From a virus (Duplodnaviria > Heunggongvirae > Uroviricota > Caudoviricetes), in the IMG/VR virus record IMGVR_UViG_2778261224_000010: a stretch of DNA of 4,537 nt; one strand, written 5' to 3'. Below the pieces are notes generated by a model. That model was not told the origin of the DNA. It ran no database searches and worked only from the letters and a program-made list of their open reading frames with translations. This document shows, in pieces, positions 1-4,537 of this stretch (position 1 is its first letter; each line of letters starts with the position of its first letter). The position numbers and the translations under genes are program-made.

Positions 1-1719
1 CAAAGCGAGAGCGCGGCAGCCGGTTCTGCGACTTCAGCAGCTGGATCAGCAACTGCTGCGGCTAACAGCCAGAAAGCAGCGAAGACGAGTGAAACTAACG
101 CAAAGTCCAGCCAGACGGCAGCGAAGACCAGCGAAACGAATGCTAAAGCCAGCGAAACTGCGGCGAAAAGCAGTCAGGATGCAGCAGCTGAAAGCGAGAG
201 TGCCGCAGCTGGTTCTGCAAGTGCGGCGGCTGCTTCTGCCACTGCATCAGCAAACAGTCAAAAAGCTGCAAAAACCAGTGAAACCAATGCAAAGACAAGC
301 GAGACTGCAGCGGCGAACTCGGCGCAAGCATCGGCAGCAAGCCAGACAGCAGCTAAAGCAAGTGAGGATGCAGCCAGAGAGTATGCAAGCCAGGCTGCGG
401 AGCCGTATAAACAAGTATTGCAGCCGCTTCCTGATGTGTGGATACCATTTAACGATTCACTGGATATGATTACGGGGTTTTCGCCATCATATAAAAAGAT
501 TGTTATTGGTGATGATGAAATAACGATGCCTGGCGACAAGGTTGTTAAGTTTAAACGCGCATCGAAAGCAACCTATATTAATAAATCTGGTGTGCTGACA
601 GAGGCTGCCATTGACGAGCCACGATTTGAACGTGATGGCCTGCTTATTGAGGGACAAAGAACGAACTTCTTCCAGAACAGTACAGACCCTTCGAAGTGGA
701 ATAAGTCAACTTCACTGGACGTTACAGAAACAGGCACAGATAGTTTCGGTTTTAATTATGGCCGGTTTGTCGTACAGGATTCGATTGTTGGCACAAGTAA
801 AGCGCATACCATTATAGGGCTGTATTCAAGTACCGGAGGGGTTGATACTTCAGGTGACGAAAAGTATGTAACTATATCCTGCCGGGTAAAAAGTGAAGTT
901 GATAATATCGCCGTTCGTATTTTATTTGAACATTATGATGGGGAAGTAAGGACATCAATAGGAACAGCAAGCCTGAACCTTACCACCCGCATAATTAGCA
1001 AGACGGGTCAGACAAGCCGTGTTACAGCAAGGTCTGTTAAGGATGATGCAACTGGCTGGATATTTTTTGAGGCTACATTAAAAGCAGATACAACAGAAAA
1101 TACGGTTGGTGGTTTCGTCCAGTATTCTCCGGATACAGGGCAGATGGTGGCATCAGGGGATTGTCTCGATGTAACCACTCCACAGATTGAGGCTGGTACA
1201 GGCGCATCATCTTTTATTGTTACGGGGGCGGCACCGGTAACGCGGGCAAGCGATATAGTTACAGTCCCAATTAAGAATAATCTTTATAATCTTCCTTTTA
1301 CGGTTCTTTGTGAGGTACATAAGAACTGGTATAAAACGCCAAATGCAGCACCGCGTGTTTTTGATACCGGCGGTCATCAAACCGGAGCGGCTATCATTCT
1401 TGGCTTCTGTTCTTCAGCAGATTACGACGGATTTCCTTGTTGCGATATTGGTGGGTCTAACAGACGGATAAACGAAAATGCATCACTTGAAAAAATGGTT
1501 ATGGGGATGCGTGTAAAGTCTGATCAGTCTACATGCGCAGTAAGTAACGGGCGTATATCCAGCGAAACAAAAACCACATGGTCATATATTCAGAACTCCG
1601 CAATTATCCGTATTGGAGGCCAGACTACAGCCGGTTTACGCCATTTATTTGGTCATATCAGGAATTTCAGAATATGGCACAAGGCATTGACTGATGCTCA
1701 GATGGGGGAGTCAATCTAA
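1..1719 (+). CDS. Side tail fiber protein, C-terminal portion (5' end lies upstream of the window)
   Basis: Frame 1 is open from base 1 to TAA at 1717-1719 and translates as QSESAAAGSATSAAGSATAAANSQKAAKTSETNAKSSQTAAKTSETNAK..., the Ala/Ser/Thr/Lys-rich repeat typical of lambdoid side tail fibers as I recall them. The listed ORF 418..1719 is in the same frame, so its Met is internal. The C-terminal ~430 aa is a globular, beta-rich distal domain ending in a LamG/ConA-like motif (FRIWHKALTDAQM). Confidence 0.88.
   Translation, partial: QSESAAAGSATSAAGSATAAANSQKAAKTSETNAKSSQTAAKTSETNAKASETAAKSSQDAAAESESAAAGSASAAAASATASANSQKAAKTSETNAKTSETAAANSAQASAASQTAAKASEDAAREYASQAAEPYKQVLQPLPDVWIPFNDSLDMITGFSPSYKKIVIGDDEITMPGDKVVKFKRASKATYINKSGVLTEAAIDEPRFERDGLLIEGQRTNFFQNSTDPSKWNKSTSLDVTETGTDSFGFNYGRFVVQDSIVGTSKAHTIIGLYSSTGGVDTSGDEKYVTISCRVKSEVDNIAVRILFEHYDGEVRTSIGTASLNLTTRIISKTGQTSRVTARSVKDDATGWIFFEATLKADTTENTVGGFVQYSPDTGQMVASGDCLDVTTPQIEAGTGASSFIVTGAAPVTRASDIVTVPIKNNLYNLPFTVLCEVHKNWYKTPNAAPRVFDTGGHQTGAAIILGFCSSADYDGFPCCDIGGSNRRINENASLEKMVMGMRVKSDQSTCAVSNGRISSETKTTWSYIQNSAIIRIGGQTTAGLRHLFGHIRNFRIWHKALTDAQMGESI
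4..294. repeat. Two imperfect direct repeats of about 100 bp (4-105 and 193-294, offset 189 bp = 63 codons) inside the tail fiber gene
   Basis: Copy 1 encodes SESAAAGSATSAAGSATAAANSQKAAKTSETNAK and copy 2 SESAAAGSASAAAASATASANSQKAAKTSETNAK. Shorter KTSETNAK units recur at about 82-105, 121-144 and 271-294. DNA identity is roughly 70 percent by eye. Confidence 0.7.
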
Positions 1720-2000
1720 TGAAAGATTTAACACTCAAATTTGCAGACAGGGCCGACTTTTCGGCCTTTATGGATAGCACTGGCTATTATGATGACGAGT
1801 CGATGCAGGATGATATTCTTATTGACGTGATAGGTAACGTGTACAAAGAAACCGGAGAACTGACTGAAGATGGCGAACCGGTATGTGTTAAGGAAGACGG
1901 ATATTTTGTAAACGTGCGCATCATTAATGATTCGCAAATATCGTCATTATTCGATGAATACGCGGTTGCTGTTGAGCATCAACTTCGTGGCTGGATGTGA
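1719..2000 (+). CDS. Hypothetical small acidic protein (93 aa), translationally coupled to the tail fiber gene
   Basis: ATG at 1719-1721 overlaps the tail fiber stop (TAATG). Shine-Dalgarno GGGGGAG at 1704-1710, 8 nt upstream. About 21 Asp/Glu against 7 Lys/Arg, so strongly acidic. I do not recognise the family. Confidence 0.7.
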   Translation: MKDLTLKFADRADFSAFMDSTGYYDDESMQDDILIDVIGNVYKETGELTEDGEPVCVKEDGYFVNVRIINDSQISSLFDEYAVAVEHQLRGWM

Positions 2001-2009
2001 GGAAGGAAA

Positions 2010-2714
2010 ATGGCTACATCGACAGTAATTCCAGGAGACATCACCACGTTAAAGGGAGATGTCAGTAAAGCCAAGGAAGATATTTCCTCAATTAACGGAA
2101 AAGTATCAACGCTTCAGACTGAGATGACCAGTGCAAAGCAGGATATCAGCTCCAGATACACAAAAACTGAAGTTGATAATAAGCTGAAAAACAAAGTGGA
2201 AGTGAACGATCTGGAAAGTGGTCGTTATGGCGGAGATTTTTATCCACTGACAGGTCGTGAAGCGTTTTATTTATGGAATTTGGCCACGACTACAGCGGCG
2301 GCAAACCTTTATCTTAATCCTGACCCTGCAATTTCGTCTGTACTGCGGTCAACATCGTCTATCCGCTATAAGCATTCAGTAGAGACGATAGATTCAGAGC
2401 ACGCCGATCTCATTTTCAAGATGCGCCCTGTGTGGTACAGGTCGCAATGCGAAAATGACAGGCGTGACTGGGGATTCTACGGATTGATTGCCGAGGAAGT
2501 AGGAGAAATTGCCCCTCAGTTTGTACACTGGCGACCAGCTAACGAGAATGATGCTCCTGAAGCTATTTCCAGCAATGGCCTTGTTGCCGAAGGTGTAATG
2601 TACGAACGTCTGGTTGTTCCACTGATTCACCATATCCAGAAACTGACTGAAAGAGTTGATGAACTTGAGTCAGAATTAAAGTTGTTATCAACTTCCCGAA
2701 GCGATATCGGATAA
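2010..2714 (+). CDS. Tail-fiber-like protein: N-terminal coiled coil plus C-terminal intramolecular chaperone (peptidase S74-like, self-cleaving) domain
   Basis: ATG at 2010 with GAGGAAGGA (1999-2007) just upstream. Residues 10-70 are heptad-like (DITTLKGDVSKAKEDISSINGKVSTLQTEM...). The C-terminal half matches the endosialidase-chaperone pattern recalled from memory: S116-S-I-R-Y-K121 (Ser...Lys with conserved Arg, about 2355-2372), GLIAEEVGEIAPQFV, and a terminal helix YERLVVPLIHHIQKLTERVDELESEL. Confidence 0.8.
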   Translation: MATSTVIPGDITTLKGDVSKAKEDISSINGKVSTLQTEMTSAKQDISSRYTKTEVDNKLKNKVEVNDLESGRYGGDFYPLTGREAFYLWNLATTTAAANLYLNPDPAISSVLRSTSSIRYKHSVETIDSEHADLIFKMRPVWYRSQCENDRRDWGFYGLIAEEVGEIAPQFVHWRPANENDAPEAISSNGLVAEGVMYERLVVPLIHHIQKLTERVDELESELKLLSTSRSDIG

Positions 2715-2724
2715 AGGAGGAGTA

Positions 2725-3012
2725 ATGGATATAACACCTTTCCTTCATGCACTTTGTGCTGTGGCTGCACAGGTACTGGTTGGTCTTTTTACCGGAAACT
2801 GGGCTTACGGTGCGATAGCTGGTTGTACGTTCTTCATCGCTCGTGAACATACCCAGGCAGAATATCGCTGGATTGAAATGTTCGGGCATGGCAAGCGTAT
2901 GAATATGCCGTGGTGGGGCGGTTTTGATCCACGCGCGTGGGATGTGGCAAGCCTGATGGATTTTGCTGTGCCGGTGGTGCCGTGTCTGCTGATCTGGATG
3001 TTGATCCGTTAA
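2725..3012 (+). CDS. Hypothetical small membrane protein (95 aa, 2-3 predicted transmembrane segments)
   Basis: Strong Shine-Dalgarno AAGGAGGAG (2714-2722) 4 nt before ATG at 2725. Hydrophobic stretches PFLHALCAVAAQVLVGLF, AYGAIAGCTFFIA and ASLMDFAVPVVPCLLIWMLI, with a Trp-rich segment MPWWGGFDPRAW between them. Last gene of the + strand cluster. No recognisable family. Confidence 0.7.
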   Translation: MDITPFLHALCAVAAQVLVGLFTGNWAYGAIAGCTFFIAREHTQAEYRWIEMFGHGKRMNMPWWGGFDPRAWDVASLMDFAVPVVPCLLIWMLIR

Positions 3013-3028
3013 ATATAAAAAGTAAAAA

Positions 3029-3062
3029 GCCGCAGTAACTTGTCATGATAGGATACTGCGGC
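3029..3062 (-). terminator. Rho-independent terminator candidate for the minus-strand int/dinI unit (weaker bidirectional function possible)
   Basis: Perfect 9-bp inverted repeat GCCGCAGTA (3029-3037) / TACTGCGGC (3054-3062) with a 16-nt loop. On the - strand the stem is followed by TTTTTACTTTTTATATTT. On the + strand no good U-tract follows. It lies between the convergent gene ends at 3012 and 3130. Confidence 0.55.
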
Positions 3063-3129
3063 TGGCTGGTTAACTTTCGATAGTGCGAGTATTGAATGAT
3101 TTCCAGCCGTTACTGATTTTACGTGCTAA

Positions 3130-3378
3130 TTAGTGAACAAACCACTCGTCAGCAGACTCCCAGGTATCTTTCAGAGTTTCCTGAACAAAAGTTTTAGCTG
3201 AATCTTTATCGGCGGTGCGCGTAACAGAAAGGCCATCGTTGCTGGTGGCTTTTACGATCACCTCTACATCGTCATAACGTTTACTGATGCGTCGGGTTAA
3301 TTCTTCCTTTAACGCATCCACAGCACCGTTTGGCATTTTAGTCATTTTTTCTTTGGCTATGCAGATCTCAATACGCAT
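3130..3378 (-). CDS. dinI: DinI-family (DNA-damage-inducible protein I-like) protein, 82 aa
   Basis: Translation [35 protein letters not shown]...[33 protein letters not shown] shares the MRIE..IAK..GA(I/V)DAL..EL(S/T)RRI..LSV..ETWESAD(D/E)WFV signature of E. coli DinI as I recall it. Shine-Dalgarno AGAGGGA (complement of about 3383-3389) upstream of ATG at 3376-3378. Two LexA boxes lie immediately upstream. Confidence 0.88.
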
Positions 3379-3413: not shown

Positions 3414-3443
3414 ATTTTTAACTGTATGGATAAACAGTGTCAA
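3414..3443 (-). promoter_or_regulatory. Candidate sigma70 promoter of the dinI-like gene
   Basis: On the - strand, TTGACA (complement of 3438-3443, overlapping the int stop codon at 3440-3442) is followed 17 nt later by TAAAAA(T) (complement of 3414-3420). The -35 is perfect, the -10 imperfect. LexA box 2 occupies the spacer and box 1 the start/leader region. Confidence 0.5.
3420..3439 (-). promoter_or_regulatory. LexA (SOS) box 2, within the promoter spacer
   Basis: AACTGTATGGATAAACAGTG: CTGT (3422-3425), 8 nt, ACAG (3434-3437). It lies 12 nt from box 1 and falls between the candidate -35 and -10 elements. Confidence 0.75.
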
Positions 3444-4537
3444 GAGGTCTTATTTCTGCTCCTTTGGAGCTCTTCAAAACGATTATGTAAAGATTTCGGA
3501 TACAGTTCGGTATATACCTGCCATAGCACGTTTAATGAACGATGCCCTGTAACCTGAGCGACTTCCTCAATACTAAAACCAGCCTCAAATAAGCGACTTG
3601 CCCCTTCTCTACGCAAATCATGGTATCGCAGATCTTTAATACCTAATTTGCTTCTTACCCTCTGAAATCCTGCAGTAACAGAAGTGCTGTTATATGGAAA
3701 AATGAATTCCGATTTTTTGGGCTGTCGTTGGACGATATCCCAGGCTTCCCCAAGCAAGGCTACTTTCATGTGGTTGCCTTCCTTTTTGCGTGGATCTTTC
3801 CTGTCTCTTACGAGTATAGATTTTTGTTCCTGGTCGAGATCTTCCCATCGTAACCGGCATACTTCTCCGATCCGCATACAGGACCACACAGAAAATTTGA
3901 GGATATCAACGAACGGAATTTTTGAGCATTTATGAGTAGATCGTTGTTGAAGGCCTTCAATGAGCATGTCCAGTTCATCAGATGCTGGTCTACGATTACG
4001 ACGGTTTGATTTACCAATCAAACCAAGTTTAAGTAGATATGGGCGAGCGCTTTTCGCCGGGTTTGATGTGTAATTAATTCCGTATACAGGTTTGGCCGCA
4101 TCCAGAACACTGCCAAGATAACTAACATCGTGGCTGACTGTTGCTGGACCTGCACCAGCGTTGTTTCTTAGCCTGCAATGTTCAATTACGTCATTTTCTG
4201 TCAGTTCAGATAGTTTGATCGCGGAGATGTCACTATCCATAAGCAGTTCCAGCACATATCTTTTAGTACGGCCTGCTTTACCTCCGGCATTTGGGTCATT
4301 TAAATATTTGTGTAGTAAGTCACGGACTGTAAGTCCGTCAACTGCATTTGATGATGGAATGCCATATAGATCTAATTCCATCACTTTCTGTGTTCCCCAT
4401 GTTTTGGCATGAGCATGTTTAGGGAATGTTTTGCTTTCCCTGTAAGTGATAACACCTTTTTCTTTGATAATCACATTACAGCGATAGCGTGGTGTGCCAT
4501 CGGATTTTAGTCGTTTCTCTATGTTATAGTACGCCAT
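3440..4537 (-). CDS. int: Phage tyrosine-type integrase (site-specific recombinase)
   Basis: 365-aa ORF from ATG at 4535-4537 (at the window edge, so the true N-terminus could lie further out) to TGA at 3440-3442. The C-terminal catalytic domain carries the tyrosine recombinase residues: Arg in SCMRIGEVCRLRWEDLD, H-x-x-R in LRYHDLRREGASRLF, and His/Tyr in GHRSLNVLWQVY. Confidence 0.9.
   Translation of the reverse strand: MAYYNIEKRLKSDGTPRYRCNVIIKEKGVITYRESKTFPKHAHAKTWGTQKVMELDLYGIPSSNAVDGLTVRDLLHKYLNDPNAGGKAGRTKRYVLELLMDSDISAIKLSELTENDVIEHCRLRNNAGAGPATVSHDVSYLGSVLDAAKPVYGINYTSNPAKSARPYLLKLGLIGKSNRRNRRPASDELDMLIEGLQQRSTHKCSKIPFVDILKFSVWSCMRIGEVCRLRWEDLDQEQKSILVRDRKDPRKKEGNHMKVALLGEAWDIVQRQPKKSEFIFPYNSTSVTAGFQRVRSKLGIKDLRYHDLRREGASRLFEAGFSIEEVAQVTGHRSLNVLWQVYTELYPKSLHNRFEELQRSRNKTS

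Follow-up and report, generated by a model that had tools for sequence, protein, structure and literature searches.

A predicted three-helix membrane protein of the PHROG 1443 family encoded at the end of the receptor-binding module of a lambdoid Escherichia coli prophage

We analysed a window of 4,537 nucleotides from a tailed-phage genome (IMG/VR record IMGVR_UViG_2778261224_000010), which is the right end of a lambdoid prophage of Escherichia coli. In a genome with DNA that is 100% identical over positions 2600-3130 of the window, the prophage is inserted at dusA. The gene considered here is an open reading frame (ORF) of 288 bp on the plus strand at positions 2725 to 3012, with an ATG start codon and a TAA stop codon, encoding a protein of 95 amino acids (aa) that is annotated as 'hypothetical' in every source. 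Coming after the fibre genes, it is the final gene on the plus strand, so that, as an initial annotation made from the sequence had stated, it closes the late tail-fibre cluster, and it is convergent with dinI and int (Table 1). With 574 clusters of homologues and a low ratio of non-synonymous to synonymous substitution (dN/dS), this is a genuine gene. We hold with high confidence that its product belongs to a family of three-helix inner-membrane proteins and that it is the terminal gene of a receptor-binding module.

The Shine-Dalgarno sequence of the gene overlaps the TAA stop codon of the upstream fibre gene (2712-2714) and contains the single AGGAGG of the window, both strands counted. Among the 428 ATG, GTG and TTG positions on the two strands of the window, this start ranks first for pairing with the 3' end of 16S rRNA (-11.6 kcal/mol), and the corresponding duplexes of the neighbouring genes have energies of -8.4, -8.4 and -6.3 kcal/mol. 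This is the strongest Shine-Dalgarno sequence in the window, as had been proposed. A search for a promoter between positions 2600 and 2724 had also been suggested, and a consensus scan found no sigma-70-like site on the plus strand of this interval. Similarly, a scan of the window found nothing resembling a terminator in the stretch from the fibre genes to the target gene. The G+C content of the gene (0.52, compared with 0.43-0.47 nearby) is not lower than that of its neighbours and is not moron-like. Late expression together with the fibres is probable because the gene has no promoter-like site of its own and no upstream terminator and because its Shine-Dalgarno sequence overlaps the preceding stop codon. 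On the simplest reading, it is the final cistron of a late fibre operon and is translationally coupled to the preceding one. In the window, its product is probably made late together with the fibres, and the gene does not look like an autonomous transcription unit.

Table 1. Features of the 4,537-nucleotide window around the target gene
Feature	Position	Strand	Evidence or remark
Side tail fibre gene, 3' part (enters from 5' of the window)	1..1719	+	PHROG 1419 / GTA_spike_fiber / Laminin_G_3-like distal domain
Gene for 93-aa acidic protein, PHROG 1361	1719..2000	+	Frequent partner of fibre gene
Gene for 234-aa stand-alone mini-fibre	2010..2714	+	Coiled coil and Peptidase_S74 intramolecular chaperone; immediately 5' of target gene
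Shine-Dalgarno sequence AAGGAGG	2714..2720	+	4 nucleotides 5' of target ATG
Target gene, 95-aa three-helix membrane protein, PHROG 1443 family	2725..3012 (including stop)	+	ORF, PHROG match, homologues, AlphaFold2 (AF2) model, dN/dS
Helix 1, residues 4-23	2734..2793	+	One conserved face, H8-A12-Q16-G20-G24
Helix 2, residues 26-52	2800..2880	+	Hydropathy, AF2 model, alignment
Conserved core, residues 40-73, including NMPWWGGFD-x-R-x-W	2842..2943	+	About 5.4 Lys/Arg per protein
Helix 3, residues 74-94	2944..3006	+	S76, D79, P83 and C87; otherwise variable
Strong hairpin	3029..3064; T-run 3028 to 3012	-	dG -21.8 kcal/mol, z -3.8
DinI-like gene	3130-3378	-	Convergent with target gene
Tyrosine integrase gene	3440-4537	-	Convergent with target gene

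The protein matches PHROG 1443 over its whole length (residues 1-95 against positions 1-95 of a 97-position profile; E = 8.7e-58, 193.5 bits). This family has no functional annotation, and the only other PHROG matched is the fragment family 34165. No match to the protein was found in Pfam or NCBIfam, nor in PADLOC at E values up to 1, and neither a profile search of Protein Data Bank (PDB) sequences nor fold matching returned anything. The statement in the initial annotation that the protein could not be placed in a family is thus correct for Pfam, NCBIfam and PADLOC but not for PHROG. Homology to a structural virion component had been named as the result that would speak against an accessory role, and the protein showed none to any structural virion family, structural PHROG or structural fold. 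In a lenient Pfam scan of 47 divergent family members (E up to 1), PhoR_N recurred as a weak match in five of them (best E 0.0032). Since these matches cover the two-helix membrane hairpin of that domain, they were read as compositional or topological and not as homology. Identifier and keyword searches of the literature found no paper on the PHROG 1443 family.

The family is large: grouping at 90% identity gives 574 clusters and grouping at 50% leaves 453 representatives, and all members are stand-alone proteins of about 90-110 aa. They occur in Gamma-, Beta- and Alphaproteobacteria and in Desulfovibrio. Part of a 531-bp query (positions 2600-3130, which also takes in the end of the upstream fibre gene) was matched in 3,823 of 5,426 complete E. 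coli genomes, or about 70%, with a median of two places per genome having any match and a maximum of nine; only 229 genomes matched at least 80% of the query.

Conservation is concentrated in the middle of the protein. Among 66 aligned members no variation occurs at D2, H8, Q16, G29, R40, E41, Q44, A45, E46, Y47, R48, W49, R58, P62, G65, G66, W72 and P83. Across the 47 much more divergent members a signature is retained (H8 ... G29 ... R40-E41-x-x-Q44-A45-E46 ... W72 ... D79-x3-P83), and the core motif GRExxQAEYRWI...NMPWWGGFD is near-invariant even between hosts as distant as E. coli, Sphingomonas and Desulfovibrio. For 50 distinct E. coli alleles the overall dN/dS is 0.17. The value is 0.03 over residues 36-73 and about 0.9 over the C-terminal helix, whose alternative ends give 95-aa and 97-aa forms. 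Judged by these alignments, the core is unusually constrained for a phage accessory protein. A Ser76-His8-Asp79 triad was considered and dropped, because Ser76 is not conserved in the divergent members.

The AF2 model of the protein (mean predicted local distance difference test score 90.7, predicted template modelling score 0.70) has three helices and hydropathy agrees, in keeping with the two or three hydrophobic helices of the initial annotation. Helices 1 and 2 form a tight hairpin in the model, with a turn at G24-N25. The N-terminal half of helix 2 is hydrophobic (G29, G33, C34, F37) and is followed by the invariant polar stretch R40-E41-H42-T43-Q44-A45-E46-Y47-R48-W49-I50. A Trp-rich segment (residues 53-73) joins helix 2 to helix 3, within which the C-terminus of the protein (…LIWMLIR) falls. 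Conserved residues recur every four positions, suggesting that each helix has one conserved face. Over 193 members the N-terminal tail and the 40-73 segment, which have to be on one and the same side of the membrane, together carry about 6.0 Lys/Arg per protein and the C-terminal tail about 0.8. From this distribution the positive-inside rule predicts that the N-terminus is inside, the core lies at the cytoplasmic face and the C-terminus is outside. The record of phage 21 conflicts with this prediction for the family: it gives two transmembrane domains by TMHMM, with both termini inside, and a signal peptide by SignalP, and would put the core in the periplasm.

It had been claimed that the protein has no lipobox. 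In a literal sense this is not so, as IAGC at residues 31-34 (window 2815-2826), within helix 2, fits the pattern. Cys34 is present in 105 of the 193 members and absent from 88, so about half of the family has it, and the lipobox-like pattern occurs in 49. Both Cys34 and Cys87 are more than 94% conserved in the enterobacterial and Aeromonas clade and are not conserved in distant members. The N-terminus, MDITPF, contains no Lys or Arg and so provides no basic n-region. Lipoprotein processing is unlikely because this region is lacking, because the cysteine lies in the middle of helix 2 and because 88 of the 193 members do not have it; lipidation of the target protein at Cys34 thus appears unlikely. 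The conclusion drawn from the missing lipobox does stand: the protein is small, polytopic and integral to a membrane, probably the inner one, rather than a Cor-like lipoprotein.

We then compared the gene's surroundings in other phages and prophages, relying on proper gene calls, depositor annotation or per-protein scans. In the lambdoid phages 21 and mEp460_4F5 the homologue follows a side fibre gene and then, directly, the gene for the 93-aa PHROG 1361 protein. Linkage to receptor-binding genes was found in 79 of 80 E. coli viral contigs, where the gene lies 3' of the S74 mini-fibre (about 50), of a different second fibre of about 340 aa (about 25) or of the 93-aa protein (4). The E. coli copies have at least three different upstream junctions, and the near-consensus Shine-Dalgarno sequence is found at the S74 junction only. 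In the P22-like phage Gally the order is tailspike, homologue, integrase, the slot that holds gtrABC in P22, and in the Hapunavirus phiHAP-1 the homologue is in the Z/fun slot of P2, again linked to a receptor-binding gene. In P2/HP1-like prophages of Aeromonas and Leclercia it follows a Peptidase_S74 fibre gene whose stop codon abuts its start. A GpJ-like protein and a 72-aa protein precede it in Comamonas and a pectate-lyase tailspike in Citrobacter, and in prophages of Desulfovibrio, Chelativorans and Sphingobium it is found 3' of tailspike or tail proteins. Three of these settings, namely the window, Citrobacter and the P2/HP1-like prophages, show coupling between the gene and the fibre gene. 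One phage context, that of Aeromonas phage 62AhydR11PP, had no interpretable neighbourhood. These arrangements suggest that the gene is a portable cassette carried at the 3' end of the receptor-binding module.

Intact copies are also present within the receptor-binding clusters of phages that are strictly lytic. In an Ackermannviridae-like Salmonella contig the homologue lies between two pectate-lyase tailspikes; in Cobetia phage Carin-5 the order is tail spike, homologue, appendage/fibre, tail spike; and in the Aeromonas jumbo phage ACP1 it is large terminase, homologue, tail fibre. The terminase of ACP1 (locus L166, 530-3907) contains an intein, and the homologue precedes the tail fibre gene. 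The linkage is therefore to receptor-binding genes and not to lysogeny, and the family keeps it in sipho-, podo-, myo- and jumbo phages, both temperate and lytic. In two lytic phages, Kuttervirus KFSST3 (L165, 4980-5105) and HC6 (L167, 3965-4120), unannotated frameshifted remnants of the family are found directly 3' of the tailspike gene; these look like traces of the transfer of tailspike modules from phages with an intact copy. Different proteins are encoded upstream (S74 fibre, pectate-lyase spike, P22-type spike, Tfa or the 93-aa protein) and the core of the family is invariant. Constancy of the core across these upstream proteins suggests a role that is independent of the receptor. The cargo 3' of the gene also differs by phage (sitABCD, dinI/int or host genes), so that the gene marks the boundary between the conserved late operon and variable cargo. 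In phage 21 (L006, 4886-8335) the homologue is followed by a complete sitABCD iron/manganese transporter operon, carried as prophage cargo.

Some copies stand alone on bacterial chromosomes. In Aeromonas rivipollensis (L159, 8001-8309) there is a lone copy with no phage genes within 8 kb, between a Pirin gene and a PA4780-type RIO1-like kinase gene, with which it is convergent. Beyond the kinase gene are two MsbB/LpxM-type lipid A acyltransferase genes; their proximity may be coincidence and is the sole functional hint that does not come from phages. The copy is syntenic in A. aquatica, A. taiwanensis and two A. media genomes scanned (L091, L095, L096, L100), and its 59% identity to an Aeromonas prophage copy indicates an old lineage. 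Elsewhere, a Sphingomonas copy is 3' of ligA, a Novosphingobium copy is 3' of a DAHP synthase gene and one metagenomic copy is beside toxin-antitoxin, Fic and transposase genes. The chromosomal copies argue for a function that is independent of the virion.

Of the neighbouring genes in the window, the side tail fibre gene encodes a repeat-rich shaft followed by the distal domain. The shaft (window 1-417) is rich in Ala, Ser, Thr and Lys (KTSETNAKSSQTAAK) and is made of 42-nucleotide tandem repeats. This explains why the first 400 bases have a strong AT skew and a high G+C content and why spurious overlapping ORFs occur there. The mini-fibre matches just the last approximately 240 positions of a tail-fibre PHROG of 1,385 positions. 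In other E. coli prophages it is swapped for the protein of about 340 aa, with which it has only the N-terminal approximately 30 residues in common. This suggests that the mini-fibre is an exchangeable second receptor-binding module that may dock via the common N-terminus. Downstream of the target gene, the T-run of the hairpin is on the minus strand only, indicating an intrinsic terminator of the convergent dinI/int transcript and not of the target gene. The hairpin abuts the stop codon of the target gene and marks the end of its transcription unit; with the A-tract on its 5' side it may act weakly in both directions, and variants of it come after the 95-aa alleles at other E. coli loci. At about 3053-3133 of the window (L001, 9454-9534), between the target gene and dinI, RefSeq has an 81-nucleotide 'capsid protein' pseudogene fragment with an internal stop, probably a recombination scar.

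From the linkage and the conservation pattern, we tentatively favour the possibility that the protein is an envelope or exclusion factor of the inner membrane, tied to the receptor-binding module but independent of receptor type. It would be a non-structural accessory factor whose action does not depend on the receptor used by the neighbouring fibre. In the membrane, a hairpin of helices 1 and 2 would be followed by the conserved Arg/Trp-rich interfacial segment and then by the third transmembrane helix. The most likely role would be generic superinfection exclusion or interference with an envelope precursor, protecting the infected or lysogenic cell and possibly the progeny too, with the invariant His/Glu/Arg/Trp site binding a conserved partner or lipid-linked substrate. 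We speculate that a phosphate-bearing head group would be a suitable ligand for the four invariant Arg residues and for the His, Glu, Tyr and Trp located with them at the membrane interface.

Several observations weigh against this proposal. Neither PHROG nor PADLOC nor hhalign showed the protein to resemble a known exclusion protein or a defence model, and no family among the PADLOC-DB defence models was matched by the target protein at E values up to 1. Exclusion proteins usually evolve fast. The core of this family is near-invariant across bacterial classes, more like that of an enzyme or a housekeeping protein. As the core is predicted to be cytoplasmic, almost nothing of the protein would be exposed in the periplasm, where an incoming phage could be met. 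A factor that protects the lysogen would not be expected to be co-expressed late with the fibres, and adjacency to the fibre genes could partly reflect hitch-hiking with exchangeable fibre modules. Copies have also decayed in the two lytic phages KFSST3 and HC6. We consider the enzyme-like conservation and the predicted cytoplasmic core to be the main points on this side.

Known systems resemble the target gene in part. Nearest to it are small accessory genes found beside receptor-binding genes (T5 llp, phi80/N15 cor) or in the tailspike-int slot (gtrABC), although it belongs to none of these groups. The Cor/Llp proteins (Llp of T5; Cor of phi80, N15 and T1) are also encoded by small accessory genes linked to a receptor-binding gene, are non-structural and occur in lytic and temperate phages. 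However, they are lipoproteins secreted to the outer membrane, where they block a single receptor (FhuA), and they co-vary with the receptor-binding protein, whereas the target is polytopic and of the inner membrane, lacks a convincing lipoprotein signal and keeps an invariant core whatever fibre precedes it. The target has no sequence similarity to Cor/Llp in PHROG, Pfam or NCBIfam. T4 Imm, HK97 gp15 and P22 SieA are likewise small, phage-encoded, non-structural inner-membrane proteins, and gp15 is a moron within the HK97 tail operon. There was no detectable homology of the target to any of the three (hhalign probabilities of 0.37% for Imm, 0.28% for gp15 and 0.15% for SieA). They are lineage-restricted, in contrast with the widespread target family with its invariant motif and chromosomal copies. 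The Tai tail-assembly-interference systems (PMC11364771) were rejected as a comparison, because they are not membrane proteins and occupy other hotspots.

It is unlikely that the gene is a classical moron expressed from the prophage, that is, transcribed in the lysogen independently of the late genes and serving to exclude phages or mask a receptor. The copy in Gally is the best example for such an interpretation. There the tailspike gene is followed by a terminator with a 9-bp stem and a T-run (3789-3809), by an AT-rich spacer of about 190 nucleotides in which consensus scans place a promoter-like site (TTAAGA-18-TAGAAT, 3826-3855) and by an AAGGAG-ATG start, which looks like textbook moron anatomy. 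Additionally, the slots in P22-like, P2-like and lambdoid phages are those of morons, many predicted prophage regions end directly after the target gene, and the decayed copies in two lytic phages and the chromosomal copies fit the same picture. The anatomy of the window is different, as it has neither a promoter-like site nor an upstream terminator and the Shine-Dalgarno sequence overlaps the upstream stop codon. The G+C content is not atypical, and intact copies lie in the receptor-binding clusters of lytic phages. By these consensus scans, the moron reading of the initial annotation would fit the copy in Gally and is not supported for the gene in the window. Of the types of moron that it had listed, receptor-masking proteins of the Cor/Llp/Lom kind are argued against by the invariant core regardless of fibre or spike type, and a SieA-type protein by the absence of homology described above.

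The slot occupied in Gally also invites comparison with GtrA of the gtrABC cluster (P22, SfV), a small multi-helix inner-membrane protein that is found in the same position between the tailspike and int/attP in P22-like phages and is associated with glycan-targeting tailspikes. GtrA differs from the target in having four helices and not three; the target is without GtrB and GtrC partners and is on the strand of the tailspike. An hhalign comparison with P22 GtrA gave 0.2%, no match to PF04138 was found in the 47 divergent members (E up to 1) and no gtrB or gtrC neighbours were present in the contexts examined. In Kapi1 a gene between the tailspike and the integrase, hyp24, has been tested for seroconversion (10.1101/2021.04.09.439263). 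This gene was set aside: hyp24 is a 34-aa minus-strand ORF and is not a homologue, so its negative lipopolysaccharide (LPS) result does not bear on the family.

Quite unlikely, in our view, is an origin as a captured cellular membrane protein, possibly a small enzyme or a lipid or phosphate binder acting on an envelope precursor, that hitch-hikes with fibre modules and has no phage-specific role. The old syntenic copies of Aeromonas and the sphingomonad copies by ligA or aroG-like genes would be accounted for in this way, as would the enzyme-like conservation with its invariant His, Glu, Arg, Tyr and Trp residues and the position of the Aeromonas copy near two lipid A acyltransferase genes. 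The lipid A genes are in a convergent arrangement, however, and their proximity may mean nothing. Strong purifying selection within the phage-borne E. coli alleles argues against the absence of a phage role, as does the constant position of the gene in many phages unrelated to one another, where its start codon frequently overlaps or abuts the preceding stop codon.

A related proposal, which we consider decidedly unlikely, is that the protein is a minimal membrane-embedded enzyme or ligand binder acting on a universal lipid-linked envelope intermediate, used by phages to remodel or shut down the display of surface glycans. Phages of all morphotypes would have linked it to their receptor-binding genes. 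The site would be made up of the invariant residues His8 / Arg40-Glu41 / Gln44-Glu46-Tyr47-Arg48-Trp49 / Asp79 at the membrane interface, and the substrate would be one such as undecaprenyl-phosphate-linked glycans or lipid A/LPS. The function would then be a receptor-independent 'receptor-destroying' or exclusion function, and Aeromonas and sphingomonads would keep the gene on the chromosome.

A role in lysis at the end of the late operon, as holin, antiholin or in lysis timing, is highly improbable. Class I holins (lambda S, P22 gp13) are similar in size (about 100 aa) and likewise have three hydrophobic helices, and the target could plausibly be expressed late as they are. In T4 and in many Gram-positive phages the holin gene comes after the fibre genes, and one of the 47 divergent members gave a weak match to Phage_holin_8 (E 0.0036). 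Against this, an hhalign comparison with the class I holin gp13 of P22 gave 0.2% and no homology, and the target has no charged C-terminal tail and no dual start. Charge balance in the target family favours an N-in/C-out topology and that of class I holins is N-out/C-in. The core is far more conserved than holins are, and the family has conserved chromosomal orphans. An endolysin gene adjoins neither the target gene nor, in any of the contexts examined, its homologues, and the lambdoid and P22-like hosts of the gene already have an S/R/Rz cassette elsewhere.

Finally, we give very little credence to a helper in the maturation or attachment of fibres or tailspikes, or a minor virion component, because the tight, often translationally coupled linkage to receptor-binding genes and the frequent position 3' of Peptidase_S74 fibres are offset by upstream proteins of mutually unrelated types, chromosomal orphans without phage genes nearby, the terminator that separates the Gally copy from the tailspike and the lack of a match to any structural PHROG, and because fibres assemble in the cytoplasm and no fibre chaperone is known to be an integral membrane protein.

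In summary, the target family is a very common, highly conserved and unstudied partner of phage host-range modules. It is among the most conserved small proteins linked to these modules and stays constant while the adjoining fibres and spikes are swapped. If the favoured role in exclusion or envelope change is correct, it would affect the prediction of host range in phage therapy, prophage-mediated resistance and the engineering of receptor-binding modules; the last is relevant because cassettes are often transferred along with their downstream gene. If the protein is instead a minimal membrane enzyme, it would represent a new fold-function pair.

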